Positions 23,081-64,000 of a DNA stretch of 64,000 nt are shown piece by piece. The position numbers and the translations under genes are program-made. The stretch covers positions 124,001 through 188,000 of the forward strand of contig NIVC01001101.1 of assembly GCA_002269645.1 (NCBI GenBank), written 5' to 3'. Each line of letters begins with the position of its first letter. The first letter of the stretch is position 1. Below the pieces are notes generated by a model. It saw only the letters and a list, made by a program, of their open reading frames with translations, did no database searches and was not told the origin of the DNA. This stretch comes from Macrostomum lignano (Eukaryota).

Positions 23081-23145
23081 GCGAATTGGTGGCCGCTTAT
23101 TATGAGCCAGATCAAACCTGGCAACGGGCCAGAGTTGTCAGTGTT
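22752..23145 (+). CDS. Probable exon: Q/P-rich linker plus extended Tudor domain (TDRD-like)
   Basis: Open frame QQPQPPP...FCVSAVGDDPLVFYL...CPGELVAAYYEPDQTWQRARVVSV matches the Tudor beta-barrel motif. No ATG; exon boundaries uncertain. Confidence 0.65.
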
Positions 23146-35500: not shown

Positions 35501-36300
35501 CTGGGCTCAACTCCAGTGTTTTTCAGAGCGAGGTGCTTGCCATCAGCTCCTGCGCGGCAGAGCTGCGCCGAAGGCAGCTTAGCGGCCGGAAATTTATTTT
35601 TCACTCTGACAGCCAAGCAGCCCTTCGGGCCCTCTGCCGCAGCACCGCCAGCTCCAGGTCCGTCCTGGACTGCAACACCCAGCTCAACGGGCTTGCGCTT
35701 GGCAACCAGGTGGAGCTCAGATGGATCCCGGGCCACGCCGGCTTCCTCGGCAACGAGCGCGCTGACCTGCTGGCCAAGGCTGGCTCCGCCGGCACGCTAT
35801 TGGGGCCGGGCCCGGGTGCCCCCATCCCCGCCTCGGTGATCAATTCCCGCGTTAAGCGCTGGGCTGACTCCGAGCATCTCCGCAGGTGGCACGACACCCG
35901 GAATTGTAGGCAATCCCGTGCTGCCGTCCCCTGTCCCTCTCCTCTCCTGCGTAGAGCCCTCCTCAGGCTCAACCGCAGAGACCTCAGAGCAGTTAGCATG
36001 GCCCTCTCCGGGCATGGCTGCTTCTCTCGCCACCGCTTCCTTCAGGGCCAAGTACCCGAGGAGCGGTGCCCCTTCTGCCGCTCAGGCAGTGAAAACGCCG
36101 AGCATTTTATCTGCCACTGCCCGGTTTTCACCAGGGCCAGGCTTACTCACCTCGGGCCAAACCCGGTTCTCTCCGACGTTTGCAGGCCCGAGAGCATCCC
36201 GCTGCTCGCCCGGTACCTCAGGGACACCGGACGAGCTGATTTCTTCCCCACCGTCGGTGAGGAGGACCGCGCTGCAGGCGAGACCGACGGGTCCCCCTGA
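32596..36300 (+). pseudogene. LINE ORF2: APE endonuclease, reverse transcriptase, RNase H and C-terminal CCHC, split by one TGA at 33499-33501
   Basis: VQEPW, GDVNAHH and SDH (APE); QGGVLTP and YADD (RT); YTDGS, SDSQAAL and WIPGH...GNERAD (RNase H). The two ORFs are in the same frame, and APW*N corresponds to the usual PWWN. Confidence 0.92.
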
Positions 36301-39390: not shown

Positions 39391-39711
39391 TTCTTTACCT
39401 TACCCTAACCTCATCTGAACAGAATTTGGAAATTTCTGCAGAAGCATCTGCCCATCCCTTACTTCAATATTGTTATATTTTATAACGTACGCAAATAGGA
39501 ATTCATGCTTGAGTTCCTCAATTGTCTGAAGATAACTGTGACGGGTCAGCAAATTGTGTTGAAATCGGTAGGCCCGGCTGAATGAACACTGCGCGCCAGT
39601 CACGAGTGAAGGTTATCTTCGGAATAAATTTAATTTAAAGAGTTTTAATCAATTATTAGTTGACAGTAGCTCGTAAGATATAAGATATAACATTTGATAT
39701 GGAAAACATAC

Positions 39712-42005
39712 TTCTTTGTCGCCACAGCGCACTCGAATTTTATTTATGTTCTCGTAGCCTGCAAACAATCGGTCGGAGCACTGCAACAAAATTTCATCAT
39801 GTGCAGATTGGCTCGCATGCTCTGTTGCTTGGGCCACACGGACTGACTCGAAGAGTTGCTGGCTGGACACCGCCTCTTCAAACCATTCTGTCAGATCGGA
39901 ATCGTTGGCAAGGTGGTAGCGAATTTCAGCATCAGAACAGTTCAGCACAACGACTTGGCCGTACTCTTGGACCTGGGCCCCTTGAATTTCCAGGGTGTTG
40001 CCCACGGCCCAGTTATTCACTCGAGTTGAACTTTTTGCCCAGAATGTGCAGGACACGGAGGATGCCGAGTCATCGACCAGCATTACTTTGGCCAGGTTGA
40101 CGGGAGGCCCATATTTTCTCTGGACTTCCTTCGACGGTTCGATGTTTTTTATCACACCTCGGATGTCAACTTTTCTGTTTAAGTAGGGCAAAAGTGCACC
40201 AGTTATGGATTACAAAATCTTGGTCTTCTGTCAAACCCCTGGATTATCGGGATTAGGAATTCCCGGCCAAAGATAATGCCGGGATTATCCATCCCGGTAA
40301 ATCCAGAGTTATTCGTAATCCTGAGATCCCAAAAATTCATCTCGATCCTGGGACTAATCCTTGGATTCTGGAGTAGAATATGATCGCAGTAGAGATTTAT
40401 CAATTCCCAACTACATTAAGCCAGAAATACTAAATCAATAGCAAATGATTTCATGAGCTAGCTGTACTTGTTGAATTGTAACTTTCTAGGTTTCTTGTGT
40501 AATCTGCATATTGGTTTTTATTTTTTATTTTGTATAGCTACATGCTGCCGCAACAAGTCCAATCAATATTTCTTATTTCAATATTTCAGTATTTCTGTGC
40601 ATGTGTGTGACTGATCGATTTTTGAAAAAAAAACTGCTAAACCGATTTCGTTAGAACTGCACTGTTCGATCAGAAATAATAGCGTGGGAAAATGGTTTCA
40701 GTTTACGAATGATATGAGTTTGTGCTAAATCAAAGAAAAATAGAGAATAAGAGGATGAGACTGACAGGTCTGACAAGAAAAAAAAATTCCAGGAAAGGAG
40801 AAAGAAGAAAGAGAGTGTTAGGTTTTGGCCGAAGAATGATTACAAATTCAAAGACAACTTTTATGAGCAGCCCTTGGCTTGCTACTTTCTATAATGTTCG
40901 CTCGCTCTATAAGCGAGGAGTTTGGAACCTTTTTATTTTATACCACTTACGAGCATAGCTTTTGCTTCTCGATGTCGTGGTCTGTATCAAACGGAACGAG
41001 TTTGTAACCATAGACACAGCCACAAAGTAAATTCATTTATAGCTAAGAGCTCGATAGCTCACAGAGAGGAAAGAGAGAAGAGAGGAGAGATGAGAAAGAA
41101 GAGAAAGAGGAGAGGACACAAAGCAGTAGGATTTTGCTATAGTGTTAAACGGAAATGTTAGTCAAATACTCTTGCTCATAACCGTACTGCAGCTCAGAAT
41201 TAGGAACAGATAGTCAAGAGCATTTAGTAGAGATGGAATATTCGTTATTCGGATTTGGTACTCGAAAAATAATATGAATCCGAATATTCGGTATTTAGAT
41301 TTGGTATTCGTGTTCGGAAACATATTGGATTCGTTCTTTCTCTAGAATTTAGGCACATTATTGGTTTTAAATCCCGAAAATTCCCGGGATTCATAGATTT
41401 TTATCACGGATGCCGGAATCCCCAATACCGATAATTTGTGATCCTGGGACTATCGATCCGGGTAAATCCCGACAACCCCGACATTGATCCTAGTCCCGGG
41501 ATTGCAAACCCTAGCACCGGTAAAGACTGTATCTAATAATTTAAAAATTATGAAAACCTTGAAATATTTTTAAGCACTTACTTCTTCATGGAGACGGCAG
41601 AAAGGTCGCCGATTTTTTTATACACCGCGGGTGGCCGATTGACGATCTCTTGGGTCGCTAGGATGGTCGCATTATTGTCTACTGACAGAGTTATTTCAAG
41701 GCGATTGTCGGTGCAGTTGTAGGTCTGATTTGCAGGCTTCACCCAACCCCCAGACACTCTTACAGTGCTTGAGTCTTGGCACATGTCGTGGTGATTTTTA
41801 AGTCGCGACCGAAAACGCTCACTCGAATCTCATTCTGGCCATCAGCCAAAACAAATGAAAATACTTGGCCGTTTCCCTTGGCGCTAGTATAATTCTTGAG
41901 CTGCGTCACTCGGGACACCAGGCCGATTATAGAACCGTCCATTAGGCCAGGCACAAGAGCTGCGATGCTCAGTTTGCTCTTAGCAGTTGTAGTATCTGTT
42001 GCCAT
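39712..42005 (-). pseudogene. RPA70-like ssDNA-binding protein gene (two OB folds); exons 42005-41582 and 40174-39712; one frameshift near 41800
   Basis: GNGQVFSFVLADGQNEIRVSVF...GWVKPANQTY resembles RPA70 DBD-A; KVDIRGVIK...VMLVDDSASSVSCTFW...GAQVQEY...WF resembles DBD-B. The GT-AG intron 41581-40175 is phase-consistent. Confidence 0.75.
40200..41515. mobile_element. Degenerate hAT-like MITE remnants in the RPA-like intron
   Basis: CCCGGGAT-rich subterminal repeats at 40200-40420 and 41360-41515, ending GGGATTGCAAACCCTAG. A TAGAGATGGAATATTCG end with ATTCG repeats lies at about 41225-41330. Confidence 0.5.
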
Positions 42006-46864: not shown

Positions 46865-47383
46865 ATGTGTGAACCGCAAGAACCGCTGAATCATTATACA
46901 GCCAAAGAGCTCGGTGGCCTTTTATTCAATTATGGGTGCAAACAACAAGGCAAAAAGAGTGAGCTCATTCAGCGCCTACGCCAAGCCATGCAGCAAAGCA
47001 CACACAGCCGGAGATCTGAACGGAGACGCCAGGCTAAGGACGAAGAGGACGCCCTCTCTGCAGCGCTGGGTGCAGCCCGGATCAGCGACGGATCTGACGA
47101 GGAGACTGCCGCGGGGCCCCCGTCCCAGTCGGATGGCGACCGGAGAAAGCGGCTTCAGCACGAGGTGGAAGAGCTGGAATGTCGGGTCCTCGAGAACCGC
47201 AAGGCTCAGCTGCAGCGACAGCTAGGTGGGCTCGAGGCATCGGGATCATCGCTGTCTCAGCCAGGTGAGCGCCAGTCTGCGACTGATGTTTTGCGTGAAT
47301 GTGCTGAAACGCTAGGCCAATCGGTAGGGACTGGGCAGACGAGTGCCGGTGGCAGTGCTATCCCGACAGGATCAGGCCAGTAG
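46865..47383 (+). CDS. Truncated SAP-domain protein, probably a retroelement gag-like N-terminus
   Basis: YTAKELGGLLFNYGCKQQGKKSELIQRLRQA fits the SAP consensus and is followed by a coiled coil. The stop codon is supplied by the insertion at 47381. Confidence 0.55.
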   Translation: MCEPQEPLNHYTAKELGGLLFNYGCKQQGKKSELIQRLRQAMQQSTHSRRSERRRQAKDEEDALSAALGAARISDGSDEETAAGPPSQSDGDRRKRLQHEVEELECRVLENRKAQLQRQLGGLEASGSSLSQPGERQSATDVLRECAETLGQSVGTGQTSAGGSAIPTGSGQ

Positions 47384-47478
47384 TAGTATGTTATAAGGGG
47401 CTGCGCCACACTTATTGCTCGGGCGCATTGCGCGCCAGCTCGCTGGATGACTCAGCCCCTTATAACATACTACTACTA
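47381..47478. mobile_element. 98-bp miniature TIR element with CCAG target duplication
   Basis: TAGTAGTATGTTATAAGGGGCTG / CAGCCCCTTATAACATACTACTA(CTA). CCAG at 47377-80 and 47479-82. Confidence 0.8.
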
Positions 47479-47528
47479 CCAGGAGGTCAGAGTTGCAAGT
47501 GTGTGATATTTAAATATACATATATCTG

Positions 47529-47659
47529 TGAGTGAGGGTGTTGAGGGTGAGGGCATGTGGGGGCATTGGCCTGTGGAATATTTCACAGAACACAGATTTT
47601 CCGGAATTTTTATACTTTTAAAAAAGGGGGGGGTGCCCTCGCCCTCATGCCCTCACTCA
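47529..47659. repeat. Imperfect inverted repeat (MITE-like)
   Basis: TGAGTGAGGGTGTTGAGGGTGAGGGCA / TGCCCTCGCCCTCATGCCCTCACTCA. Confidence 0.65.
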
Positions 47660-48269
47660 TTTTGAAAATCAGTAAAAATAAGTAAAAAATGACTAAAAAC
47701 AGGTGAAAATGGTCTGAAAACAGCAATTTTTTGTGATTTTCAAAAATTTTGAAAAAGTGCAATTTTCACGATTCCAGCTCTAAAACCATGAGAAAAGTTG
47801 GATTCACGGGTCAATTCAATGCAATTTCAGGTCTATAGAATATGAAAGTGTCATCCAGTTTAACGATAGTAAATTATATATATATAAAATGGCCTTCAGT
47901 AAACCATTATTTCTAGGAAATGCTTTAGATATTCAGTCAGCTATAACAAAACTACCACCCATCTTCTCCACTGGAAAATATCCTGGCGAATTTCATATTC
48001 CAGGGTATTCTTTTGCAAGCCAACAGCTCTGACTCACAATGCTGATGATGTATCAGATCCCCGTAACGTGGCACATTTTTGTCTATTTTTAGAACTAGAA
48101 AAAAAATGAATGAAGCAAACACAAAAGACTCTCAGACACACAGAGTGGGTGGCTCCACTGGAGCACAAAGGCAGCCTTTATTTCAAAGAGTTGTTTTCAT
48201 GGTATATACTAAGGTAAGTAGCGCGGAGTGAATGTTTGAATGATAATTGTCACTTTAAGTAGTAGCATG

Positions 48270-49167: not shown

Positions 49168-49949
49168 TTGAAATATGTTGTATAGATAGAATTCTAAACC
49201 TAAAGTAAATTTTCTCTTGCTCTTGCTTGCTAAGCTAAATGAAACTAATATAGTGATGAAGAGAAGGGTCGCAGTCAGCCGATAACAGATTACAACTAGC
49301 AAAAGTGTGTGGGTGTGAGCCACGCATTAAACTTAATATTATGTGTGTGAGTGTATTAATTTCAACAAAGAATCTCTAACAATTACTCACGCGCTCGTTG
49401 TGCGAATTGAGATAGAGAGTATCTTTTAATAAACACACACAAATAACTACCATAACGTTTGAGAGTTGGTGAGTGTGCCAGTCCTGCATCAGCCTGTAAA
49501 TTGTTGTAAAAGACAGCTAGCATGAGGGGTGCGCTTAGTGTCTTTTATGAGTTGAATAAGGGGGTTTGATGAAGATGAAAAAACACTGAACTCCTGTGAG
49601 AGTCTCGGAGAGTGGCAGCGGAGTGTGGTGTGAGTCAGTCTCAATCTCTCAATCAGCGAAACCAGAATTCCAAAACCAGATTGTAACTGCTAAATTTTCT
49701 TAGAAAAATGTAAGCTAATAACCCAAATGTTCGAAATGCTCTACCACAAAAATACTATGATTCTATTATAAACTTCTCTCAAATAAAAACACCCACTTGA
49801 AAGTTTCGACTAATTGAAGAAATTGATAAAGCTTACGATGAATATAAAGCAGAAATATTAAAACACACCGATTGTAAATGCCCCCCTTATTTGTATTCAT
49901 TCAGAGTATATCTTGCACATGTTGATAAATGGGCATTGATTTCGAGACA

Positions 49950-52106
49950 GTCTTTGATGTAAAACATATTTCTCCTTGTTGTAAAATGTCAACATCAACT
50001 TTGACTGGACAAACTTTTTCTTTTCGACTTCGAGGTATTGCTTCTGTATGTCAGATAAATCCTCAAATCTAGTTGTTCGTCTTTCAGGAGCCAGTGGATA
50101 TTTACCTGTAGCTTTCTTACACTCCTCTGTATATTCAAGGTCAACTTCAAGAAAACAACCCCTGCCATTAGGAATATTCTTGTGATACTCTAGATCATTT
50201 TCATACTTGAAATCTCCCACAGGAAGATTTTTCATCATTGCTTCACCATATAAATTATTCTTGTCCAAGTATAGCATGTATGACGATTCAGAATTGCTGT
50301 CATAATTTTCTAAATACTTATTGTTCATTTTTTTATATCGATCTCCAAGAACTCCAGAGAAACCACCGCGAATACCACTTTCTACCATGGATATCATATC
50401 TTTATCACCAAGTAATTCCAGCTCAACATTGGTATATTTCAACCCACATGCCCACGATAATCCAGAAAGGGAAAAGCAATACGCAGGATCTATCTTGAAA
50501 TATTTCAAAAATGTTGATCGAAACTTCTCAAAAGCGTTAACAAATGAGTAAATCTTTCTAATTACTGCTGTTGTATCACTGGGTGGCAAATATTTTATTT
50601 CTTCTTCAGAGAGTGTAAATGGTGGTTCCAAAAACCTAGATCCATCTAAAAACACAACGCCACTTGTATAATTCCCCCACTTAATTGCAACATGGTCTTC
50701 GATGTTTTAGAAATGAAATCCAATTTATATGCTGCATTCTTTATTCTTGTTAATGGAACTATCGAATAGTTTAGATCTTTTCCAGATTCATTCAGGAGAA
50801 ACAACGGTACTGTTTGATTCGCCTTGCCCTCTTTGGTATTACATGATTGACATGCTGCACCGCGATATTTACCATTGTAGTGATTATGCTCTCGAATTTT
50901 TTTACTATCTACAAATGGGCTTGTGCAGAGAAAACATTGTTCTGCCGCTTTGCAATCAGTCTCTTCGACATCACTTAAACTTGGATGTTTATATCTATCC
51001 ATTTCATTTTTAATATGCTCAAACTTTTTGATTACGGTTTCAACGAATGATTCCACTGTAGTATTTGAAATAATATCAGACTGTATAATGTCTTCATAAT
51101 CAGAACTAGTAAAAAGTGTCCATTGTGATAGTTCTAGCGATTTATCATCCATAGTTACATAATCCAATATAGCATAAAACACAAATGGCTTTCTCACACT
51201 CATGTGGTAGTTTTTAAACTTTAATATCCTCTTATCAATCTTTGGAACTTCAATTGACACCTTGAAGTCGACACAAAGTGCTTTATGATTATCCAGTGCA
51301 TCTTGGGAGTATTTCACTTGAAGACACTTTCGACAAAGAAAAGCCCTGTTATTGGACGTCAGGAATAAGTTCAGGTCTGTTATTAAACAATAATGATTTT
51401 TGACAAGTAGTAAATCAATAACATCGGGGTTGTCATAATCTTCAGTAAGACGAATTGAATATATGGACTCTTTAGTTTTAATATCTCTCAATCCAAACAC
51501 ATTTATATGGAGGCTGTTCAACTTTTCAATCTCAGAGATATCTCGAATGTCTACTGGAAACGCAACGTCTCCTAAGTTTATTTCATTTATATACTGTGTA
51601 TACTTACCAACTCTATATCTATGTTCCTTCACAGGATGGAGCTTTGCTAAAATAGACCAGAGAAAGCACCTATTGTCTTTAGTATTCTTAACATTTACTA
51701 ATGCGTTTGATTTAATTGGAATTGGAATATAAGTTCCTCCTTTCAACTGATTAATGCCACCAACTTTCAACACAATCTTTACTAACTTAACAAAATAATA
51801 TCCCGATCCCCTTTCATTAAAGCTATCCTTCCATTCATCAAATTCATCCAGAACATCCCCGATTGTACTTTCAATACTAGCTTCAACTTGAAGCAGATTT
51901 AACAAAGTTCGATACTTTGAATGATATTGGAACTCAATCCAACTGTCGGTAGTTCCTTTATAAAATTCTGCGACAAAGGAAATTCTGTATTTTATTGAAT
52001 CTCTAGCCATCAAATATTCGGAAAGAATTGGAGAGATTAAACCGCGAATTTCTTCAACGGAGTCGAGATCAAATTCATAAGAGGCCGCTGGTATTTTCCT
52101 TTCCAT
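49950..52106 (-). pseudogene. Protein-primed DNA polymerase B, with one frameshift near 50675 and C-terminal truncation
   Basis: ERGSGY, DNRCFLWSILA, NHYCLI, CxxC zinc fingers, HNHYNGKYRGAACQSCN, GIRGG and YLDKNNLYG. Motifs B and C are absent after VLHQRL. Confidence 0.88.
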
Positions 52107-52130
52107 TTTTAAGAAAAAAATTATACAATA

Positions 52131-52871
52131 TTAATTGTAGGGAGGTGCACTCGGAGCGTTTGATTGAAGATTGAGTGTTGCCGAGTACTCTTTTGGCTTA
52201 TCAGCTAGACCCATTTTTTCTCTCAGATCTTTCTCCAACAATTCCTTTTTAATTTTTTCCTTCGCTGAATGATCAAGTCTACTCTCTTTGAGGATTTTAT
52301 CAACAACTTCCGAATGGTTAACTTCTTCAGGCGCAACACAGGCGTCTAACAATTGGTCTCTTTTCTCTCTGTATTCTGAATAAATTGCAGTAGCTGCTTG
52401 AACCTCTTCAACAGTTATTCTATAATCATCAACTACTTTTTGGGAGTATATATACAATCTTTCTCTGTATTGATTTGCCAGATCTCTGAGAACAATGTAT
52501 TTTGCCTTCTGCTTTTGGCAATGCATTTTCACAGTTGCAAACAACGACGTGGATTTTACAGCTTCAAAACCACTCATTGCCCCGATTGCTACTCCAATGA
52601 CTAAGGGATTCAATGTCAGTATCGATGATGCTATGCCAATCCCTGTAGCAGTCAAGAGACTTACATTTCCTGTCACAATGTTGATCCAATTTATCCTGCT
52701 ACTTTGTCGTTTGTACTTTTTTACCTTTTTGCTATAAATTGTAAGATCTTTAGTAATACATTCAATACTGCCTTTGATTTCACCCCTTCTCTGATTGAAA
52801 TAGTCCCGCTCCCTCAAATCTGCTTCATGCAGCTCAACCACAGGATAGATGTGTTCATTTTTCTCATTCAT
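52131..52871 (-). CDS. 246-aa membrane-active protein of the adintovirus 'GasderminX'-like type
   Basis: Basic helix, then a central Gly/Ala-rich hydrophobic hairpin (residues ~62-112), then KQKAKY and a helical C-terminus. Intact ORF. Confidence 0.65.
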   Translation of the reverse strand: MNEKNEHIYPVVELHEADLRERDYFNQRRGEIKGSIECITKDLTIYSKKVKKYKRQSSRINWINIVTGNVSLLTATGIGIASSILTLNPLVIGVAIGAMSGFEAVKSTSLFATVKMHCQKQKAKYIVLRDLANQYRERLYIYSQKVVDDYRITVEEVQAATAIYSEYREKRDQLLDACVAPEEVNHSEVVDKILKESRLDHSAKEKIKKELLEKDLREKMGLADKPKEYSATLNLQSNAPSAPPYN

Positions 52872-52873
52872 TT

Positions 52874-54253
52874 TTATGTGGCAATTATGTCTAAAATCGG
52901 ATAAAGTTGAAAGCCTGAAACTATAAGAACAGTTGATCCTTCAGTGGCTGAATTAATATGCACTCTATAAACGGAGAATTTTTCGGTGGAAGCTACTTCG
53001 AAATACTTCATCACTCCAGGAACTAAACCAGCGTTTTCGGTAGAAAAAATATTCTTAAAGTCTCTCTTGTTATTGCTTCCTTTCAGAATAAAACGTTTTG
53101 GTTGATTTTTTATAATTTCACTACCTACTGCTTTGGTTCCTTTCAATCCGAATTTCCAAATTTGAATAGACTCGGGAAGTTGTACTTCAATGTAAGAATT
53201 GGAATCATTCCTCGATGCCCATTCTGAATTAGATACTATATAACCCCAATTATCTGACGTTGCAAATGCTCCAGATGACGCTACATTGAAAACCCTTTCT
53301 CTCTAGTTTTGGTATGTTGCTAGTGAGGGAATATATCCTGTATAAGATTTGAAACCTAGTCCCCGCCTTAGTCGCAGCTCCACTGATTCAAGTACATTGT
53401 CTACGTATAGCTTTGGTACAGCTTGAAGTCTATCTATAGGCCACACTAAATCATTAACCACTGTTTCTCTCTCAAGTAATTCAATTTTTGTAAGCTTTAC
53501 AGAACCAGAAAAATTTAGAGAATAATGGAAATAATATGAGGGATTGGGTATTTGTTTCCTACGATGTGCATTGCTCCTTCGTAGTTCAATGGGTGCACTT
53601 TGTTCAACAGGTGTCCAGTTTGTTCCATTTAGGCTCACACTAACAGACCAACCAGGCCACACCTCTCCTTCCAACTTTATCTCTACAACTTTCCTAGCTC
53701 TTTTCAAAAATTGAAATCGTATCCACTTGTCTGAGTCATCTGCACTGCTCCATTCTGAAGCTGGGTTTGAATCTGCAACATGATATGCTGCTGAAGAGTT
53801 ATGAGAAGCGGTCGATTTCATGTCAGGATGGGAAGTGTTTGAAGTCAGTAATGAAAGAATATTGACTAATTTCGAAGTCTCTGTACCCCCCACAGTACCT
53901 TGCCTTTCTGCTAACAAAGTGTCAATCTCAGTTTTAGAATACATCTTAGTGTCAATTTCGGTTTTAGAATACATCTTAGTGTCAATCTCAGTTTTTGTGT
54001 AGACATTGTTTACGCGCCCATGAGCATCGTCAATTAATTGTAGCATGGTGATATTCATTGCGTCACTATCTTCCTTTGAATAACAGTCTGAAACATTTCT
54101 CTTTGCTAACAATAAACTATCTATTTCCTCTCTCTTATATCCTTCACTTTCATTGATGTAGCGATCATCAGCTAACGCTATTGTTATTCCAGGCGCTATA
54201 TCATTTGAATTTGACGAGTAACCAAATTGATTGGCAGTATTCTTGTAATTCAT
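52874..54253 (-). pseudogene. Fibre/spike-like protein with YSKTEID repeats and two F5/8 type C (discoidin)-like domains; TAG at 53303 and a frameshift near 53230
   Basis: N-terminal ADDRYI motif and three Y(T/S)KTEID repeats. SEWSS...WIRFQF...SLNGTNW and SEWAS...YIEVQLP...FILKGSN mark the two domains. Confidence 0.65.
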
Positions 54254-54681
54254 TTTAATTGCTGCAAAATTTCATTAAAGCTATCTCCTTTATCGATTCG
54301 GTGTAAAAATTACAGCGACATTTGACCACAATATTTCTTATCAAAAGTTTGAATTTGTTCTTCCATGTCTCCACATATTCTATTCTTTGTGTGATTAAAC
54401 TTTTCCATAATTTCCAATGTGGGGGGTAGTGCATAGGAATCAAAATAATAAACCTTATCAGGAGCTGAAAAGATAGCTGAATGATGTATACCCCGTTCTT
54501 TCGAAGTGTGAATATTTGTCATTAAGTAACCATACTGTGGTAAACCAACAATTTCATCTCTCGTGGCATAACGAAATGGTTTTAACTTGAGATATTTTAC
54601 CCAATTTATCAGATAAATATTAGTCGTAGTGTCAGTCCCAAACTTTTGTTTAAATGCGTTCCATGTCTCAGCTTTGCTCAT
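54250..54681 (-). pseudogene. Adenain-like cysteine protease (complete copy) with a premature TAA at 54310-54312
   Basis: GIHH (His), YYFDSY (Asp) and QIQ...YCG (Gln/Cys). The frame continues FLHRIDKGDSFNEILQQLK* after the stop, and its TGA overlaps the fibre ATG. Confidence 0.82.
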
Positions 54682-54875
54682 TTTTACCACTCATATTTGT
54701 CGTACGTGTAGATTTATACATATTTCCTCGCCAAGAAATATTGGGATAGTTTTATGAGAACCAGATAATATCTGCAAGCTAAGCTTGGTCAGCGAATGTT
54801 AGTTTAATTTTAGACTTTTATTGACTCTAAGGGATCTTGTGGTTTTTTTCTTGGTTCACAAAATTTAACATAAAG

Positions 54876-55205
54876 TCAAAGTGAAATTAAAATAAAAAAT
54901 AAAAGTTGTGGAATTATTAGTAATGTACTTGATATTACTATTAATGATATTGCAATTTTTATATTTGATTCATAATTATTTGGTATTCCTATGATATTCA
55001 ATTTTTTAGATAAAAATAAGGCGGGAAAAATAATCATCATAAGTAAGATTAGTAAAATAATAGGAATTATAATATTTTGATAGCTGTTCGTTTCACTTGG
55101 TTGGTTATCATCCGTTACTTTACGCTCTTTGTCTTTATCAAATAAAAGGGGCGCTGCTGCTATAGGATGGGTGCTGTCACAGGTGTTGGCACAATCTGTT
55201 GCCAT
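54876..55205 (-). CDS. 109-aa two-TM membrane protein inserted between duplicated protease segments
   Basis: Intact ORF with two long hydrophobic stretches; starts 1 nt after the stop of the truncated protease. Confidence 0.6.
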   Translation of the reverse strand: MATDCANTCDSTHPIAAAPLLFDKDKERKVTDDNQPSETNSYQNIIIPIILLILLMMIIFPALFLSKKLNIIGIPNNYESNIKIAISLIVISSTLLIIPQLLFFILISL

Positions 55206-55206
55206 T

Positions 55207-55458
55207 TTATAGTTTATTTTTTAAATAAACCTTATCAGGAGCTGAAAAGATAGCTGAATGATGTATACCCCGTTCTTTCGAAGTGTGAATATTTGTCATA
55301 AAGTAACCATACTGTGGTAAATCAACAATTTCATCTCTCATTGCATAACGAAATGGTTTTAACTTGAGATATTTTACCCAGTTTATCAGATCAATATTAG
55401 TCGTAGTGTCAGTCCCAAACTTTTGTTTAAATGCATTCCATGTCTCAGCTTCGTTCAT
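55207..55458 (-). pseudogene. Truncated duplicate of the adenain protease N-terminal half
   Basis: Segment 55224-55510 duplicates 54447-54733. It ends at PDKVY, before the catalytic Asp and Cys. Confidence 0.85.
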
Positions 55459-55467
55459 TTTTAACAC

Positions 55468-56259
55468 TCATATTTGTCGTACGTGTAGATTTATAAATAT
55501 TTCCTCGCCATCAAAGTCGTATAGAACACCAGACTCATCTTCGATGACAAAATCGAATGTGCTCAACATGTTTGTAGTTAGTGGTAGGTACACAGGATTT
55601 GCAGGCTCTTGAATATTTTACTTCCCATTGGGACAGAGAACGATGGAATTGAAAGAAGTATTTGCTTATCAATTAAATGATTTCGATTAGCTGGATCAGT
55701 GATAAAACCCCCCTTGATATTTAGACGACGAACCATGATTGCACTTCTAGCTCCGTCTATCCGAGCTGGATTTGGAGCTCTCTCAAATGGTTTCAAATAC
55801 ACTTCCGAATCGAATCCCAATAGTCTTCTAAAATTATTCGAATGTGCATCCCTGAAATCAACTTGATAATCTGTGGCTAACCGTAACTCAACTCTACGCG
55901 TGCCTAGGCTTGCACTAAAAACAATAGCCCCCTCTTTCCAATCATTTACAGCTGTTAGCAATCTTTGAATCTCGCTTGACAGACTTTTAACTTCCTATGA
56001 ACCTGCTTGAATCTTTATTTTTCTCCATGTTCTACCACTATCCCTCGAGTATCGCAACTCATTATTGCCTCCTTCAATATTGTTAATGGCATCAAATACT
56101 GCAAACTTTTTTATACCAGCTTCGTATTCTTGATCTTCATAAAGATTTTTAGGAGTGCCTAGAGTTTCTCGAAATGAGTTTTTAATTGAAAAGAAGTCAA
56201 ATGTGCGTTGAAAATTTTTACTCAAGAGGATGTTGACTTTTTCTATTTCTTTTTTCCAT
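55468..56259 (-). pseudogene. Minor capsid protein (penton), three lesions
   Basis: Reconstructs as MEKEIEKVNILL...AINNIEGGNNELRYS...GS(Y)EV...LLGFD...QEPANPVYLPL...DFDGEEIFINLHVRQI*. Lesions: an extra A in the run at 56250-55, TAG at 55995 and a frameshift near 55612. Confidence 0.78.
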
Positions 56260-56261
56260 TT

Positions 56262-56993
56262 TTAAGCAAATAATTCTGCTAGCTCTTTATCAACATTGTT
56301 ATGTCCCACTGCCTTAGCTGCTAGTAATGTCAACACTCTTTCACTGAGTCCAGATCCCGGTTTTACTCGATATCCTGGTGGATTATTTTTCAATATCCTT
56401 ACTGCTTGCTTATAATTCCCACTTGATTTGGCCGCTGGATTTTTACAATGTTCAATGAGGTTAACATAATCCTGCAATGTTTGCATCTTGAATTGCTTCA
56501 GCTCTTCACCATTTTCAGTTACTTTAGGCATTTTGAACAACTCTTCAAGATCTTCAGAAAATGGCATTCGGAATTCGTTGACAATGATGTCTCGACCTTG
56601 TTCATGGAATTCAACATCTATTACAGATGATCCAAATATATATCCAGCATCAGTTTTTTGAATTCGTATACTAGGTGCTGGTCTTTGAGTTATTGGAATC
56701 TTTCCAATTTCTTCAATTATTTTGTCAAATACTTCCAGAGGTTCAAATCGTCCTTTTGGTGTACTTGATTGCGGAACTGGAACTTTTTGATTCTGAAGTT
56801 TATCAACAAGGTTGGCATTGACATCAATAAATTCATCAAGCTTTTCTGTGACAGGTTTTTGAGCTAATGGATCCACTCTTGCATATAAACTCTCTTCTCC
56901 AATTTTCAAATAGCGATGAGCATCATTTCTGGATTTGTACATTTCTCGCTGCTTCGCTAAATTAATGAGATCTTTTATATATTCATTAGTCAT
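56262..56993 (-). CDS. 243-aa conserved Polinton-type protein of unknown function
   Basis: Intact ORF between ATPase and penton. The C-terminal GSGLSERVLTLLAAKAVGHNN resembles a motif common in Polinton ORFs. Confidence 0.65.
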   Translation of the reverse strand: MTNEYIKDLINLAKQREMYKSRNDAHRYLKIGEESLYARVDPLAQKPVTEKLDEFIDVNANLVDKLQNQKVPVPQSSTPKGRFEPLEVFDKIIEEIGKIPITQRPAPSIRIQKTDAGYIFGSSVIDVEFHEQGRDIIVNEFRMPFSEDLEELFKMPKVTENGEELKQFKMQTLQDYVNLIEHCKNPAAKSSGNYKQAVRILKNNPPGYRVKPGSGLSERVLTLLAAKAVGHNNVDKELAELFA

Positions 56994-56995
56994 TT

Positions 56996-57767
56996 TTACA
57001 ATGGGATTTTAGTTAGAACATCCTTATACAAATCTTGCTCATCCTCATCAGCTCTTGTATTTATATAGATATAGCCATACTTCTTTTTCCAAGCCTTTCT
57101 ACATTTAGCCTTGAATATAGCGGGTTCATAATTCGTTTCTATATTTCTAGCAATGTGATTCAAGTTTGTATCTTTTTGTTTAAAGATTATGTAGCATGTC
57201 GTATTCTCCCTGACAGTATTGCGATCTAGTTTGGTAAAATTTTGAGCTAGATAAAAACCACAACAGTTTCCATGCCTGCCTCTCTGAAACAGACTTTCCT
57301 GAAATGTTTGATTAGCCTCTCCCAAAACATCGTCCAATATCACATGTCTTTAGTCCATTATGAAAAATTTCTTCATTTGGAGTATGAGAAAGAGTGACAG
57401 GAATTTTTTTGATTTCTTCATTTTTTTCTGATGTGCTTTGCACTCGACCAAGGTCGGCTGCCTCTCGACAAATATGTCTAATATCTTCAGGAGATGCATC
57501 GTCACTCACCTGGTAGACATGATAGAGTGAGTTGATAAGAGAAGGTGGGAGACCATTTTCAAAGCCATGCTTTAGAAACTGATACTCTGGATCCATTTGA
57601 GATGCTCTGGGAACATATAAAGCTAACTCATTAAAGTCCACTAGTTTTTCAGGACTTGTAAGAATATGGAATAGTAAATATGTTTTACCCGTATTTGTAG
57701 CGCCGATAATACAACATAAAAGAGGATTAGGGAAAATAGGATCATGCTGAAATTTTACTTTGGGCAT
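56996..57767 (-). pseudogene. A32/FtsK-like genome-packaging ATPase, one-base frameshift near 57350
   Basis: Walker A GATNTGKT, Walker B VILDD, arginine finger RGRH and AQN. Removing one A from CTAAAGACAT fuses the two ORFs. Confidence 0.88.
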
Positions 57768-57788
57768 TTAAAAAAAGAAAAAATGACC

Positions 57789-59159
57789 TTATTCGACGCG
57801 GCCCATTTGAGGGTGAGGCCCACTGATAACTTGGATTACATTCTTTGTTTGTTCAAGAATTAGTGCAAAAGCTGTCAGCTCAACATTGGTTGACTTCTTG
57901 ATAAATAATTGAATATTCACTCCACTCTTGACAAGAAACTCATCCTGAGCTGTTATATCAAAGCAGAATATTGGATAGATGGTTAGATAGTCTTGTTTAT
58001 TGAATGGTGGAGTTACACCGAAATGGCTGCAGATGCCCTCGTACATTTCACTCGCTTTATGAATGTCTTGAGCTACTGGATCAATATCAACATAATCAGT
58101 TGGATACATCACTTGATTTAATCTGACTTGAAGCTGGGTTATTTTTACTGCATTTGCTCCAGTCTTGTAAGACACATACTTGTGATCATTAACTATATAT
58201 GATGGGTTGTTTACGTCATATTTGAAGGCTACAAAGATTGCAAGTGGCATATTGGAGATGCTGGTTTTGTTCCATGTATATGGGCTTCCTTGAATGAGTT
58301 GTGGCGGAATCGTTACCCTCTCTGGAAATGATACTATAATGCTCTTGTTGAGTGATTCTAGAAAAGCTGCTTCAGCACTGGGTGACAAAGTAATAGCAGG
58401 GATCCAAATCTCAAAGCTATTAATAGTTAACTTAGCTTCGGTCCCGGCAGCTCCAAAGAAAATTTCAGCATCGTTAGTCTTTCTTGTCCATGTAAATTTG
58501 TATTTAATTCCTTTGCTAATTTTCTGCCAATCAAGGAACCCAATGAGGGGTGTTAATGATAGTTTGATTGTTCCACCTCTGTTTGGAGCATTAGTGACAT
58601 TATTATAATTTTCAAGCCTCCTAATGTATCCAGTATTCGAATCCTTCTTATTAAGTCTATTTTTCATAGCGATTGCTGCAGTTCTCACAGCTTCAGCATC
58701 TGCGTTGTTTGCTAGAGGTATATCAGAAACAGTCCCAGCATCCCCAGTGTCTGGAATCCAACCGTATGCTTCTCCGACTTCATTCATCAATTTTGAGTAC
58801 ATTACGGATTTTAAGATTATGTCATACTCTCCAGGTTCATTATAGACTTTCTTTGATCCTCCTATGTCCACAATAAGTTGAGAAAACAGACGCATAGGCC
58901 AATTATGTTCTAGAGTAATGTTCGTATTCAAGTCTGTGTTATCTCGCTGTGTTATCGAGTATCTTATAAAACCGAATGCCTCTGACATGAGAATGTATGC
59001 CTCTGTTGAATTGACTTCATGAACTATTTGACCTCCAGCAACATTGACATTATTACTGCTACCTGCTGTTGGCGAAATCTTAATATAATCTTCTTTCTTT
59101 TTGAAAAAGCTAAAAGTTTTGTCCTCATATAGGTTCAGTATATCCTTTTTGTTTTCCAT
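57789..59159 (-). CDS. Double jelly-roll major capsid protein (456 aa, intact)
   Basis: Size, position and Polinton capsid-like motifs: LFSQLIVDIGG, GWIPD, PLAIFVAF, LQVRLNQVMYP and YPIFCFDITAQ. Confidence 0.85.
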   Translation of the reverse strand: MENKKDILNLYEDKTFSFFKKKEDYIKISPTAGSSNNVNVAGGQIVHEVNSTEAYILMSEAFGFIRYSITQRDNTDLNTNITLEHNWPMRLFSQLIVDIGGSKKVYNEPGEYDIILKSVMYSKLMNEVGEAYGWIPDTGDAGTVSDIPLANNADAEAVRTAAIAMKNRLNKKDSNTGYIRRLENYNNVTNAPNRGGTIKLSLTPLIGFLDWQKISKGIKYKFTWTRKTNDAEIFFGAAGTEAKLTINSFEIWIPAITLSPSAEAAFLESLNKSIIVSFPERVTIPPQLIQGSPYTWNKTSISNMPLAIFVAFKYDVNNPSYIVNDHKYVSYKTGANAVKITQLQVRLNQVMYPTDYVDIDPVAQDIHKASEMYEGICSHFGVTPPFNKQDYLTIYPIFCFDITAQDEFLVKSGVNIQLFIKKSTNVELTAFALILEQTKNVIQVISGPHPQMGRVE

Positions 59160-59179
59160 TTTTATACGAGAAATTTAAA

Positions 59180-59545
59180 CTAAGCTTCATGAGGTCTAAG
59201 AATTATCCCATTACCCTGTTTCTCCTTTTCAACTTTAAAAGTCTTTAGCAGCCACTTAACTGCTTCACTGGGTACTTGTTCGACTCTTTTAGCCGCATCA
59301 ACTAATACACCACTCCCTTGAGCTTTTTTCAATTCTTCTAGTTTTTGTCGTTCAATGCTTTCTAATGTCTTATTATGCTTAGCATTGTTGGCTGTATTAA
59401 CACTTTTTGCAATCATTGTACCAACTCCTGAGGCTGCTCCGATACCACCCAAAATTGCTGGTAGTAAGCCTAATAGAGGAATTATTCCACCTTCATGTTC
59501 TTTCTGTTTGTCTTGCAATTCTCGAATCTTCTCTTTAGAAAGATA
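59180..59545 (-). pseudogene. pX/core-protein-like ORF with a GG-hydrophobic maturation motif, 5'-truncated
   Basis: LSKEKIRELQ...EGG|IIPLLGLLPAILGGIGAASGVG resembles adenovirus pX (GG|ILPLLIP). No ATG upstream; the element breaks at about 59545. Confidence 0.6.
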
Positions 59546-60096
59546 CTAGCAGAACCCCCCGCTTAAAGTGTCCCATCCACGGAAAATTCCAATCTATTGC
59601 AGAACTCCCCCATTAAATTGTCCCATCCGTGAAAAATTCCAATCTATGGGATGCAAATCCTCGGAATCCTAGTCTTACAGTATGTGAGCCAACATAATTT
59701 TAATTGATATTATTAAAATTCGATAACAAATCGCAATAGACAATGCAACGGAAATACTTAAAATAATACTGAAATGCTGTGTAGTGTGACTTTCACATCT
59801 TGTACTTATTTGCAAAAAAATCTATGCGATGGCACAAATCGAATTTACGCGCTGAGTTTATTGATGGAGTTTATTGACTTTGAGGACAGCTCAGCAAGAA
59901 TCAAATTTTACAATAAAAATGACTCACATTCGACGGAGTTGAAAAGCTCTACTTTTCTCTACTACTCTTCTCTGAAAAGCTCTGCAATTTTTAACATATC
60001 ATCTGTAAATTCAGTAAGTCCATGAAATAAATGATATATACTTCTATTACAGTCCTTGACGTCAGTGCGATTTATCGGCGGCTGCTTCACACCGCT

Positions 60097-60426
60097 TCAT
60101 TCAGTATCGATGGTTTCATTAGCTGACTCTGCAGGCAAATCCTTGGACATACAGGAGGCGTCAGGTTTGTCTGCCTCACACCGATCTGGTCCCAGCCGAG
60201 GTTCCTTCCGTCGTGGCGTCAGTTCCTCCGATTCGTCCAGTCTCTCTCCAAGGATTGATTCCAGATGGTCCCGCTCTGCCCGAACGATGTCCAAATCGTA
60301 CCTGAGTATGGCGATCTCGTCGTCCCTCGCCTTCTGCCCTTCTTCCAATTCTGCGATGCGCTTTCTCAGATCGGCTATTGTTGAACCCTGTTCTCCTACA
60401 ATATCGGAGAACACTTCCGCCGCCAC
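60097..60426 (-). CDS. Coiled-coil ORF fragment of unknown origin at the Helitron breakpoint
   Basis: Heptad-like IADLRKRIAELEEGQKARDDEIAILRYDL; no ATG. Confidence 0.3.
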   Translation of the reverse strand: MAAEVFSDIVGEQGSTIADLRKRIAELEEGQKARDDEIAILRYDLDIVRAERDHLESILGERLDESEELTPRRKEPRLGPDRCEADKPDASCMSKDLPAESANETIDTE

Positions 60427-62326
60427 GCAGGTGTAGAATCACGTCCCGCATTGTCACAGGGCCCTCACCATCATCAGCAGTCTCAGTGCCAGTCAAGACA
60501 GCAACCTGACTGACAGCAGGAAGGTTAAAGCGTCTGTAAATGCAGAAAAATAATAGTTATAATAATATTAGTCATACAAATAGGAATAGTTTGGAATAAT
60601 TAAAACCATGTATGTTCACAACATCTCAAAATCATTTACCTTAAGTGTTCCCCAGCTGGCTTTCGGTCCGCGCGAATCACAAGAGACGAATGCTTCAGCT
60701 GAGGGTCCTCAGTCAGTCTCTCAATCGCAGCTTTGAAATTGCGCACATAAGAATTGTGTCGGTGCAGCAAGTTCTGAAGCAATTCTATCAGCTGGCGGTC
60801 AATGCCCTGGACCATGGCCATCCTTGTCTCCAATTCGGAGTCACAAAAAAAAGATCTGACAAAACTTTGCTGCCAATTTCCTTCAGGGAGCAAACTTCCC
60901 ATTCGGTGGTGAAACTCTCCATGAACAATCACGTTAATACATCCACCAGGTAGTAGTCTCTCATTCACTCCCAATGGACACATGTGAAGCAGAGCATTGA
61001 TCTTTCTTACGTTGTTCAGGAAGTTGGCGCTTTTGTCGCGCTCACCCAGGTAAAGTCTTGAGCTCGTCCGAGATTTGTGGCGGCGTCAATTTCACCTTTC
61101 CGCCCTTACAGCACATTCCAGGTGGTTCATATTGCCAGAGCAGGGCGCTGCATTTCTTGCATTGTAACGCCAATCGCCCCGCAAAATGTGGCTTCATAGC
61201 AGTCGCAGTCAGCTGCCAACTCTGGCGCAGGGCATCTCGGGCACGTGCTGCACTCAGTCGGGTAGCACTGTCCGTCTCAGTCTCGACATTATTGTAAACA
61301 CGGGTGGAGATCTCAGAGAGGTCGGGTAGCTCCGCCTGTGCACTGCTCATAGAACGAGCACCGCTATCAGACCCCACTGTAGCATCTAAAAAACATCCAC
61401 TGATGACGCGCAGCGACTCGTAATGCTGGCTACTGCGGTGGTACAGCAGCAGAACGGTGGCCACAGACGGCAGCGTCGCTGCTGGTGAGCTCTGTACGCA
61501 GGTCAGCCTGTCGTCTTGGGACTCGTCAAGCTGATAAATAGCGAAATCCACGTTCAGGATTTTGCCAAGCAAAGGCGCGACAAAATCATGAACGTAGACC
61601 CCATCAGTCAAGGTGTCCCGTACCACCTGCTCGATGGTCAGCCGCTCGACCTGCAGCAGGGCAGCCTGCTCCTGGAGCAGAGGCGGGAGTCTGTCTGCCA
61701 TTGTTCGCCTGACCATGGCGTGGTCCATGGCCAGCGGCGTTCCGCGCAACTGATCCGCAACGGCGTGAAAGTAGCAGTTGCCGTCCCCACTGACAGGAGT
61801 AACCTGGGTGCAGGTTACACTGAGCGCGCGACCCGTGACTGACCTGCAGTTAACAACGTTTAATACTTAAATCCAACGTTTAATCCATGTTTAGAAACGA
61901 CGACAAGAAAAGAAACAATAATATATATATTAAAACTTACATACGTCGACCTTGACTGACTTCTAACGCTGAAGCTACGTCAGTAACATTCAATGTCCTG
62001 CGCTGCGTAGAAATGCGCCGTTCGGCCTCCAGACGGGCTCGTCGTTGTATCTCCGACTCGACTAAACGGCGCTCCGTACCGCGGGCTTTGTCCCTGGCCT
62101 GTCGTGAAACTCGCTCAGTCTCTGATTCGCCTGTGCGTCGGGCCGCAGTATCCAGGCGATCGCGTTCCAGACGCGCTTCTCGAGAGCTTTTGCTCTCCGT
62201 TTCACGGCGTATACGCGCGCGTTCTTGGTGCTTTTGTAACCGTAGCTCCCTATCTTCTGCAGTTTCTTCCTTCCTACGTTGCTTGGCTTCGCGACTTTTC
62301 TAAGCAACGCTCTTACGTTTAGCCAT
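60420..62326 (-). pseudogene. Helitron RepHel N-terminal region: charged repeats, OTU protease, zinc finger and Rep N-terminus; truncated before the HUH and helicase domains
   Basis: ETAEDRELRL/EARLERDR repeats; GDGNCYFHAVADQL...QHYESL (OTU); CKKCSALLWQYEPPGMCCKGGKVKL; HGEFHHRMGSLLP; and GEHLR|RFNLP across the GT-AG intron 60639-60534. TAG at 62300 and a frameshift near 61050. Confidence 0.88.
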
Positions 62327-62852
62327 GGGACCAAAAAATGCAAGATAGCAGTTCGATTCGATTCGAAATTGACGTAAAAGAATTACGTCAAACGATAAAG
62401 TGATATATATATATGTATAGCCAAAGAAACCAAAGAAATCGCGACCGCACCGCGTTTGCGCTTACGACACAAAAGACCATAGACTCTTTAGCAGAAAAGC
62501 AGAATAGCAGAATTTAGCAGAATAGCAGAACCATGGATGAATGAATAGAATGGATTGCTATTCTGGCTCTGGCTATTTTCGTTTTTGACTCTTTTGCATC
62601 CGGTTCCCCCCCCCCGTGCCTTTTCATTGGTTGATGATTGCCATAGACAATTTTGTTTGTCTCGCTCGTGTTTTGAAATAAAGGGGGAAGATTCGAGAGT
62701 CGATTCGTCTACAATTAAATCAGTTCTTTGCGCTTGTGCATCGAAAGAAAGGGGCGAAGGCAGATTTATTTCAAAACACGATAAATCTCAATGTTCATGA
62801 GTTCATTGGTTGCTAGGGTCCTCGAATTGGTTGCTAGGGTCCTCGAATTGGT

Positions 62853-63178
62853 AAAGGCGCGACAAAATCATGAACGTAGACCCCATCAGTCAAGGTGTCC
62901 CGTACCACCTGCTCGATGGTCAGCCGCTCGACCTGCAGCAGGGCAGCCTGCTCCTGGAGCAGAGGCGGGAGTCTGTCTGCCATTGTTCGCCTGACCATGG
63001 CGTGGTCCATGGCCAGCGGCGTTCCGCGCAACTGATCCGCAACGGCGTGAAAGTAGCAGTTGCCGTCCCCACTGACAGGAGTAACCTGGGTGCAGGTTAC
63101 ACTGAGCGCGCGACCCGTGACTGACCTGCAGTTAACAACGTTTAATACTTTAAATCCAACGTTTAATCCATGTTTAGA
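62853..63178. repeat. Copy of 61571-61895, inserted between duplicated flanks 62749-62852 and 63181-63284
   Basis: Near-identical sequence from AAAGGCGCGACAAAATC to CATGTTTAGA. Confidence 0.92.
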
Positions 63179-63236
63179 TTAAGGGGCGAATGCAGATTTA
63201 TTTCAAAACATGATAAATCTCAATGTTCATGAGTTC

Positions 63237-63965
63237 ATTGGTTGCTAGGGTCTTCGAATTGGTTGCTAGGGTCTTCGAATTGGTTGCTAAGGTCCTCGAA
63301 TTGGTTGCTAGGGTCTTCGAATTGGTTGCTAGGGTCCTCGGATTGGTTGCTAGGGTCCTCGAATTGGTTGCTAGGATCCTCCAATTGGTTGCTAGGGTCC
63401 TCGAATTGGTTGCTAGGGTCCTCGAATTGGTTGCTAGGGTCCTCGAATTGGTTGCTAGGGTCCTCGAATTGGTTGCTAGGGTCCTCGAATTGGTTGCTAG
63501 GATCCTCGAATTGGTTGCTAAGGTCCTCGAATTGGTTGCTAGGGTCTTCGAATTGGTTGCTAGGGTCCTCGAATTGGTTGCTAGGGTCCTCGGATTGGTT
63601 GCTAGGGTCCTCGAATTGGTTGCTAGGATCCTCCAATTGGTTGCTAGGGTCCTCGGATTGGTTGCTAGGGTCCTCGAATTGGTTGCTAGGGTCCTCGAAT
63701 TGGTTGCTAGGGTCCTCGGATTGGTTGCTAGGGTCCTCGAATTGGTTGCTAGGATCCTCGAATTGGTTGCTAAGGTCCTCGAATTGGTTGCTAGGGTCCT
63801 CGAATTGGTTGCTAGGGTCCTCGAATTGGTTGCTAAGGTCCTCGAATTGGTTGCTAGGGTCCTCGAATTGGTTGCTAGGGTCCTCGAATTGGTTGCTAGG
63901 GTCCTCGAATTGGTTGCTAGGGTCCTCGGATTGGTTGCTAGGGTCCTCGAATCGGTTGCTAGGGT
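63237..63965. repeat. 21-bp minisatellite (TTGGTTGCTAGGGTCCTCGAA)
   Basis: About 35 near-identical copies. Confidence 0.97.
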
Positions 63966-64000
63966 ATTTTTGATTTTGGTTGCTACGGTCTCGTGCTTTG

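Follow-up and report, generated by a model that had tools for sequence, protein, structure and literature searches.

A Polinton family of Macrostomum lignano with a protein-primed polymerase that appears to have lost its proofreading motifs, a neighbouring primase-helicase gene and fold-back ends

The exonuclease is conserved in all family B DNA polymerases save that of mavirus and the fusions of protein-primed polymerase and S1H (pPolB-S1H) of Polinton-like viruses (PLVs); its loss goes together with the gain of a helicase in mavirus and PLVs, compensation of the one by the other has been proposed, and the removal of the terminal protein (TP) before integration is left unexplained (PMC11161782). 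Nematode Polintons exchange two polymerases, pPolB1 and pPolB2, and Exo I-III are conserved in both classes as well as in a eukaryote-wide set (PMC10748475); the word 'helicase' is absent from the main text of that article (Jeong et al., 2023). Starrett et al. (2021) took arrays of nearly overlapping open reading frames (ORFs) as a search criterion (PMC8502044), and end palindromes have been described for virophages and PLVs of protists, mostly without pPolB (bioRxiv 10.64898/2026.07.28.741278). It is against this background that we consider a stretch of 64,000 nucleotides of Macrostomum lignano (the window: contig NIVC01001101.1, here C1101, positions 124,001 to 188,000), which contains a damaged copy of a young, multi-copy, integrase-bearing Polinton of this animal. 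An endogenous Polinton in an animal is ordinary, and what is new here is the replication module. In the literature we found no account of this Polinton family or of an exonuclease-less animal Polinton; Repbase, subscription journals and part of the Starrett supplement lay outside the search, so that a prior description there is possible, and Macrostomum gave 0 matches in the part of that supplement that was searched (PMC8502044). On end hairpins, the Halocafeteria preprint was the one relevant item listed.

The family of the window, family 1, comes in three layouts. In layout A (the window, C620, C2232, C3947, C944 and C412) the fibre gene, a 246-aa ORF (ORF246) and the polymerase stand in one run, convergent with a gene for a protein of 832 aa. 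Layout B has the same block inverted, ORF246 following the left terminal inverted repeat (TIR), and 11 contigs show at least one B junction. Layout C joins the same capsid module (major capsid protein, MCP, 96-99%; packaging ATPase 97%) to another polymerase of about 1276 codons, which is 25% and 51% identical to that of layouts A and B in two aligned parts. We discarded the idea that layout B is an assembly artefact, the joint between TIR and ORF246 being present in short-read contigs of four runs out of four, and do not favour a programmed flip-flop between A and B: the content of the spacers and the 21-bp breakpoint copies differ between the layouts, so that a single old inversion fits better. 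In the layout-B spacer (L043:7680-9500; L065) there are tandem repeats, a small ORF with a RING finger and a hairpin of 21 bp that resembles one in family 2. Two further families serve below for comparison: family 2 (C77, C1776), which is abundant, with an MCP of about 490 aa, an exonuclease-intact polymerase of 1324 aa, longer end hairpins and, in C1776, a 6-bp target-site duplication (TSD); and a third family (C234:52000-78632), with an MCP 50-59% identical to that of the window, a 986-aa ORF and pieces of a polymerase whose GGRTE motif we take to be of Alpha type.

The polymerase of layouts A and B has lost motifs of proofreading while its priming and polymerase motifs stay under purifying selection. 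The Asp-x-Glu pair of ExoI is absent in 13 of 13 loci, and some 70 residues that hold ExoIII (counted by eye) are absent from the naturally unbroken polymerase ORF, of which one copy was aligned. Kept, in an alignment with 46 relatives, are the GSG linker of the TP-like region, the Cys and His of the vOTU domain and Pol motifs A, B and C, the last reading SDCDS and not the usual DTD; the ratio of non-synonymous to synonymous substitution rates (dN/dS), window against sisters, lies at 0.13-0.15 for three parts of the polymerase. We may set beside this the 119 other database homologues, where the acidic residues of ExoI are kept in 106 of the 108 proteins that cover the motif and those of ExoIII in 99 of 100, 11 and 19 respectively falling short of the motif. 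In a FastTree phylogeny of 48 proteins, from which the mavirus polymerase was left out, the exonuclease-less enzyme stands beside family 2 (support 98) inside a clade of intact enzymes (100), and this nesting makes the loss a derived one. An old copy, 62% identical (C2974), has the same losses of exonuclease motifs and an adjoining D5-like gene, and the polymerases of family 2 and of layout C keep all three Exo motifs. The polymerase of the window family has homologues in Mytilus and in metagenomes; it gives no match to PF03175, which is as expected for the divergent OTU-PolB class, and the OTU motifs are present. From the degenerate motifs we infer that replication by this enzyme would be of low fidelity.

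The 832-aa neighbour is built as AEP-PriCT-SF3: PriCT_2 and D5_N lie above the Pfam cut-off, Prim-Pol and DUF5906 below it, Walker-type motifs were read by eye, and seven database relatives have 26-34% identity. Its gene is found on 38 contigs. The exonuclease-intact polymerase of layout C stands on 11 contigs among the matches listed, and there the helicase gene is seen on one only (C1874, partial, 12 kb away); none was found in the seven layout-C copies mapped, for two of which the map reaches a TIR. By analogy with mavirus and PLVs, the helicase likely compensates for the loss of the exonuclease. In phi29-type enzymes, loss of the exonuclease domain also weakens strand displacement. Mavirus reportedly carries an rve integrase too. 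It shares with the window family a polymerase made of TP, vOTU and palm regions without a working exonuclease, and an SF3 helicase encoded by a separate gene; it differs in that the exonuclease domain, eroded here, is almost gone there, and that the helicase of the window family bears a primase domain (PMC11161782). Polinton-type capsid, animal host and a polymerase nested among intact Polinton enzymes further set the window family apart from mavirus. As in nematode Polintons, one capsid module and TIR go with two polymerases in one host, but here the swap changes proofreading and helicase together (PMC10748475).

The ends of the element are the third component to be considered. The first 99 nt fold back on themselves (z -8.7, 0 of 200 shuffles), and the perfect 25-bp stem is present in 36 of the 44 ends read, two C219 ends having been missed by the anchor used. 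Among 20 distinct ends, both partners have changed in 6 pairs and 14 cells, a result matched by 0 of 500 shuffles, slid controls giving 0-1; related copies inflate the cell counts. Seven different substitutions stand on both arms. The loop is found in its usual orientation in 32 exact instances genome-wide and flipped in none, and 44 of the 44 ends read are unflipped. Fold-back tips of other sequence close the elements of family 2 (240-314 nt, eight ends) and of the third family (113 nt, one end). The rolling-hairpin ends of adeno-associated virus (AAV) and other parvoviruses have a fold-back of about 100 nt at both ends which could self-prime. Flip and flop forms as in AAV are not seen here (0 against 32), and no HUH Rep protein was found among the ORFs scanned with Pfam. 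The virophages and PLVs of Halocafeteria also carry palindromes at the tips of their TIRs beside the TSD, and hairpin priming has been proposed for them; those are protist elements, mostly without pPolB, and here the palindromes occur in three animal families that carry pPolB, the covariation has been counted and the loop does not flip (bioRxiv 10.64898/2026.07.28.741278).

Taken together, these features make it rather probable, on a reading of the sequences, that protein-primed replication of low fidelity helped by the D5-like helicase, folding back of the strand, packaging in a double jelly-roll (DJR) capsid and integration with 6-bp duplication form one cycle. Replication would start by protein priming at the AGT-repeat ends, for which the TP-like and vOTU motifs are kept; the polymerase would run at low fidelity, the helicase unwinding ahead of it; the displaced single strand would fold its 25-bp end hairpin, so that a short duplex copy of the origin would be formed again or the second strand primed; and the progeny would be packaged in the DJR capsid or inserted again by the integrase. 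Several observations weigh against this cycle. ExoII is altered with its Asp kept. The link between exonuclease and helicase is drawn from a single loss and a single replacement rather than from numerous independent events, and some polintoviruses carry D5-like proteins anyway (PMC4405056). Eight of the 44 ends are imperfect, one by a single-base deletion, two being the decayed right tip of the window locus and of its duplicate. At the left end of C944, where the TSD is intact, the outer arm is a variant while the inner one is standard, and mismatches of family-2 hairpins recur at both ends of one copy; an obligatory copying of one arm from the other is weakened by both. The hairpin is also kept in layout C and in family 2, with intact exonucleases, and is therefore not tied to the exonuclease-less replication module. 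Five of the 12 contigs with both ends read fail to show a TSD, three of them having flanks shared between contigs, and for ATPase, fibre and protease parts dN/dS is weaker, at 0.53-0.60 with few sites.

Of the alternatives, the one that survives best bears on the ends: the hairpin might be a binding or processing signal, made of two inverted sites for the integrase or an origin protein, its paired changes arising from template switching that perfects palindromes. Mismatched arms are tolerated and inherited, and the inner copy of the end sequence could be the second protein site; that three families keep a fold-back with different arm sequences and spacings from 49 to over 100 nt, and that seven different substitutions stand on both arms, nevertheless make this explanation an unlikely one, if still to be reckoned with. 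It is distinctly improbable that the primase-helicase is the true replicase, with AEP priming, the 3′ end of the hairpin self-priming and pPolB on its way out, as in PLVs that replicate by AEP-S3H only. Its AEP, PriCT-2 and SF3 parts are intact, motif C of the polymerase departs from DTD as said above, and in Halocafeteria end palindromes go mostly with replication genes other than pPolB (bioRxiv 10.64898/2026.07.28.741278); against it stand the strong purifying selection on the TP-like, vOTU and palm regions (0.13-0.15), the persistence of hairpins in layout C and family 2, where the 832-aa helicase is missing, and a loop that is never flipped (32 against 0).

Marginally less probable again is a dependent form, in which the exonuclease-less lineage would borrow replication or fidelity from abundant intact Polintons and the helicase would be a passenger. 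Against dependence, the association of polymerase and helicase goes back to a protein divergence of 38% or more, purifying selection acts on the polymerase, and layout C, with its near-identical copies, looks the younger; in favour of it, family 2 and layout C supply many intact polymerases among the matches listed, families swap genes (the transmembrane ORF and an Eco47II-like gene are common to them) and there is a 5.8-kb deletion derivative with a TSD. This derivative (L129, C219:306988-312793) retains both ends and its own 6-bp TSD, and is likely a non-autonomous form.

Coming back to protein-primed replication followed by integration, the equipment for the latter is found in the family. 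A 452-aa integrase, a fusion of rve and a PLA2-like domain, is encoded at the window locus just outside the window, and PF00665 (rve) is above cut-off both there and in a sister, so that we are dealing with an rve-bearing Polinton and not with an integrase-less PLV. The TIR pair of the window copy is 97.9% alike over 632 bp, its right partner lying at C1101:189960-190590, about 2 kb past the window end; in nine elements the TIRs measure 582-881 bp and are 93.5-99.4% alike. The ends of family copies have the sequence AGTAGT. A 6-bp TSD is typical of Polintons. It was found in seven of the 12 contigs with both ends read, and is missing at the window's own locus, where the right tip has decayed. 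The search for intact copies suggested by the original prediction has in this way yielded TIRs, TSDs and integrase in sisters; its opinion that both ends are truncated has to be abandoned, the apparent ends being a 3.5-kb deletion and a foreign insertion, and with it the view that the absence of an integrase could not be interpreted. A truncated relic, possibly integrase-less in the manner of PLV or MELD viruses, with polycistronic or reinitiation-based expression, has short junctions with AAAATG starts and guessed-RNA contigs crossing several of them in its favour and is very improbable, since the family has an integrase, TIRs and TSDs, dense arrays are already known from the group (PMC8502044) and neither a spliced-leader-like loose end nor a long RNA read stands among the matches listed.

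As to transcription, none of the short-read runs is recorded as RNA. Several gene junctions are crossed by contigs of runs whose RNA origin is a guess, and this shows no single transcript; three small runs of this kind cover most gene bins of a sister copy and not the hairpin bin, a hint that we do not use as evidence, run X10 covers all 30 bins, and in X1 and X5 coverage extends to the flanks, as it would for DNA. Tight packing had been taken as a sign of polycistronic or reinitiation-based expression, which is unsupported: near-overlapping ORF arrays being a search criterion for the group, packing is ordinary there and says little about expression (PMC8502044).

Membership in the Polinton/adintovirus group is indicated by the capsid and packaging proteins; within the group the family is probably of Beta type. 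The MCP passes the cut-off of PF21738 (DJR-like) at an E of 4e-11, its sole Pfam match. Single-sequence AlphaFold gave no usable fold (predicted local distance difference test, pLDDT, 30.5); the model from a 106-row alignment (pLDDT 93.2) is a double jelly-roll that Foldseek matches to the capsids of iridovirus, PBCV-1, Sputnik and mavirus (E 9e-14 to 5e-12) and also to MELD/adintovirus models, the fold being the same as that of the mavirus MCP at 8-10% identity. Profiles of MCP and ATPase matched no PDB sequence; in a Pfam scan, the ATPase of a sister in which the gene is unbroken scores 25.9 bits with Pox_A32, above the cut-off of 22.8. These results agree with the identity proposed in the original prediction, and with the two points it had singled out for checking, a double jelly-roll for the 456-aa ORF and an A32/FtsK-type ATPase. 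With adintoviruses the family shares pPolB with OTU, rve integrase, FtsK/A32 ATPase, adenain, hexon, a candidate penton, inverted terminal repeats and near-overlapping ORFs; the loss of exonuclease motifs and the separate AEP-SF3 helicase are unlike them, and GasderminX is not confirmed (PMC8502044). The PLA2-like domain, fused to the integrase in the window family, is typical of Alpha modules in Starrett et al. (PMC8502044).

The best database match of the MCP is a Macrostomum lignano protein at 93%, followed by 60% and then 33-44% identity, so that the lineage is, as had been supposed, a divergent one as far as its capsid goes; a polymerase fragment has a Macrostomum lignano match at 96%. 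Of the 105 MCP matches in the genome itself, 21 are of full length, have no stop and are 93-100% identical; some matches are duplicate loci (C1101/C620, C4094/C4788), and a second MCP family stands at about 25% identity to that of the window. Five copies with both ends, read stretch by stretch, measure 17.8-18.7 kb. No relative was confirmed in IMG/VR, which was scanned with the MCP and with the alignments of MCP and polymerase; from metagenomes, 11 contigs of 1-9 kb were obtained. Contigs C67, C5112, C105, C3947 and C2232 have flanks in common or exchanged among them, and this, like the TSD failures, points to chimeras in the assembly or to recombination between copies.

The window copy itself is dead. 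The reading frame is shifted in ATPase, penton, protease and polymerase, and stop codons fall within the frames of penton and fibre. By comparison with C620, which has the missing part at C620:190528-194016, 3.5 kb have been deleted internally at 49949/49950, and with them went the D5-like gene and the C-terminus of the polymerase. The break in the ATPase and the protease duplication are common to C1101 and C620; many frameshifts of sisters vary between copies and some are missing from short-read contigs, so that part of the decay in the assembly is probably sequencing error. For the integrase, dN/dS against sisters is 0.22, and the values for MCP, ORF246 and the 243-aa ORF243 are given in Table 1 with the features of the window. 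The AT-rich array on one strand was found in the order foreseen, from 59545 to 49950, with a G+C of 0.36, compared with 0.45 for those parts of the window that do not belong to the element. Gaps of 1-24 nt had been announced, and eight of the ten junctions have them (20, 21, 2, 2, 9, 1, 2 and 24 nt), the other two measuring 194 and 56 nt; the start contexts, given as TAAAATG or ATGA, read AAAATG or TAAATG. The genes read as a near-complete morphogenesis module are there, and most are broken, only MCP, ORF243, ORF246 and the transmembrane ORF being whole.

Table 1. Features of the Polinton copy and of the insertion that splits it (positions in the 64,000-nt window)
Feature	Position	Strand	Remarks
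Left TIR	47379..48017		begins AGTAGT; innermost ~130 bp duplicate the beginning of the PLA2-integrase gene (tblastn 47889-48017)
Terminal fold-back	47379..47477		25-bp stem without mismatches, closed by a 49-nt loop; element end repeated inverted on the inner side
Two small ORFs, 157 and 98 aa	48270..49167	-	variable left region; common to C620
Remnant of 114-aa ORF preceding the primase-helicase	49708..49949	+	tblastn 84%
Protein-primed polymerase	49950..52106	-	TP-like, vOTU, endonuclease VII-like domains; exonuclease motifs degenerate; frameshift near 50650-50700, cut at 49950
ORF246, two-TM-like	52131..52871	-	whole; dN/dS 0.24
Fibre-like gene, F5/8 type C (discoidin) domain	52874..54253	-	PF00754 above cut-off; in-frame stop 53303-53305
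Adenain-type protease	54253..54681	-	His, Asp, Gln, Cys kept; frameshift near its end
109-aa transmembrane (TM) ORF	54876..55205	-	locus-specific insertion
Duplicated 5' part of protease gene	55207..55458	-	292 bp, 96%
Penton (minor capsid) candidate	55468..56259	-	in-frame stop near 55996, frameshift near 55610-55635
ORF243, conserved	56262..56993	-	whole; dN/dS 0.19
A32/FtsK-type packaging ATPase	56996..57767	-	frameshift near 57340
MCP, 456-aa ORF	57789..59159	-	whole; dN/dS 0.22
3' part of 150-aa amphipathic core-protein-like gene	59180..59545	-	tblastn residues 30-150; 5' part displaced by insertion
Foreign insertion splitting the element	59546..64000, on to C1101:188241		first 355 bp match 5 contigs

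Among the other proteins of the module, the protease has no Pfam match of its own, its His, Asp, Gln and Cys being invariant in an alignment with sisters and an ORF that matches Peptidase_C5. The truncated protease and the transmembrane gene are in the array as had been noted, not as a feature of the family: they are a local insertion with a 292-bp duplication, present among the family copies examined only at the window locus and its duplicate C620. The transmembrane gene has a counterpart in family 2 with 69-80% similarity at the DNA level, and an Eco47II-like endonuclease gene adjoins the integrase in both families, splitting, in many family-1 copies, the PLA2 start from the integrase; the two shared genes (window 54876-55205; C629, C1568, C3209) point to gene exchange between families, as far as their sequences tell. 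The penton label is that of a candidate: it follows from the position in the module and from Atlas scores of 0.97-0.98 for the sister protein, against clusters that are mainly viral and have no naming family, Preplasmiviricota predominating in the two best. ORF243 and the 157-aa and 98-aa ORFs of the left region matched no Pfam family above cut-off. The GasderminX label given to ORF246 finds no support, there being no gasdermin in Pfam or among 7 PDB matches, only a sub-threshold SLATT_1 (E 0.04) and unnamed Atlas clusters. In the 150-aa ORF an amphipathic Gly-rich stretch is seen by eye; its pX/cupiennin label is a putative one. Integrase and right TIR follow the foreign insertion, beyond the window end. 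Within the insertion 300 bp are duplicated, and there is a 21-bp tandem array; its ORFs at 60636-61728, for which a Pfam scan gave nothing, by eye resemble an OTU domain and a Cys-rich Helitron start.

Other observations concern the surroundings. An ORF with a weak SAP-domain match (46865-47383, +) ends exactly at the left tip of the element, so that the Polinton was probably inserted into another repeat. Elsewhere in the window lie a retrotransposon of the type of long interspersed nuclear elements in a G+C-rich block (30908-36300, +; endonuclease, reverse transcriptase and RNase H ORFs, Pfam above cut-off), matches to an RPA OB domain (39649-40209, -) and a Tudor domain (22753-23172, +) that are probably host exons, and an open frame of 342 codons without Pfam family (4221-5249, +). 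At C67:338000-348714 a family-1 copy lies directly against a fourth element, in which it may be nested and which has a 1127-aa polymerase, a protease and PLA2-like and integrase-like ORFs; assignment of this polymerase to the Alpha type, from its PF03175 match, was dropped, as it carries the endonuclease VII domain and RGG motif of the window class.

We may now ask what this family means for the evolution of Polintons. It is conceivable, in our judgement at a little less than an even chance, that an animal Polinton independently evolved the solution of mavirus, trading proofreading for a helicase, that a younger branch swapped back to an exonuclease-intact polymerase and dropped the helicase, and that the fold-back ends may in addition finish or prime ends without protein. 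If true, the same capsid module and ends associated with both replication systems in one genome would make a natural matched pair on which to test the trade-off proposed between exonuclease and helicase, and protein-free end finishing would bear on how the terminal protein is cleared before integration. An apparently independent case of exonuclease loss is at hand in a laboratory animal, alongside a control lineage from within the family whose capsid and ATPase are 96-99% identical, so that fidelity, strand displacement and the need for a helicase can be compared using natural enzymes. Finally, the co-varying hairpins in three families of one genome extend the 2026 protist observation to pPolB-bearing animal Polintons, and their unflipped loops exclude a flip model of the AAV type.

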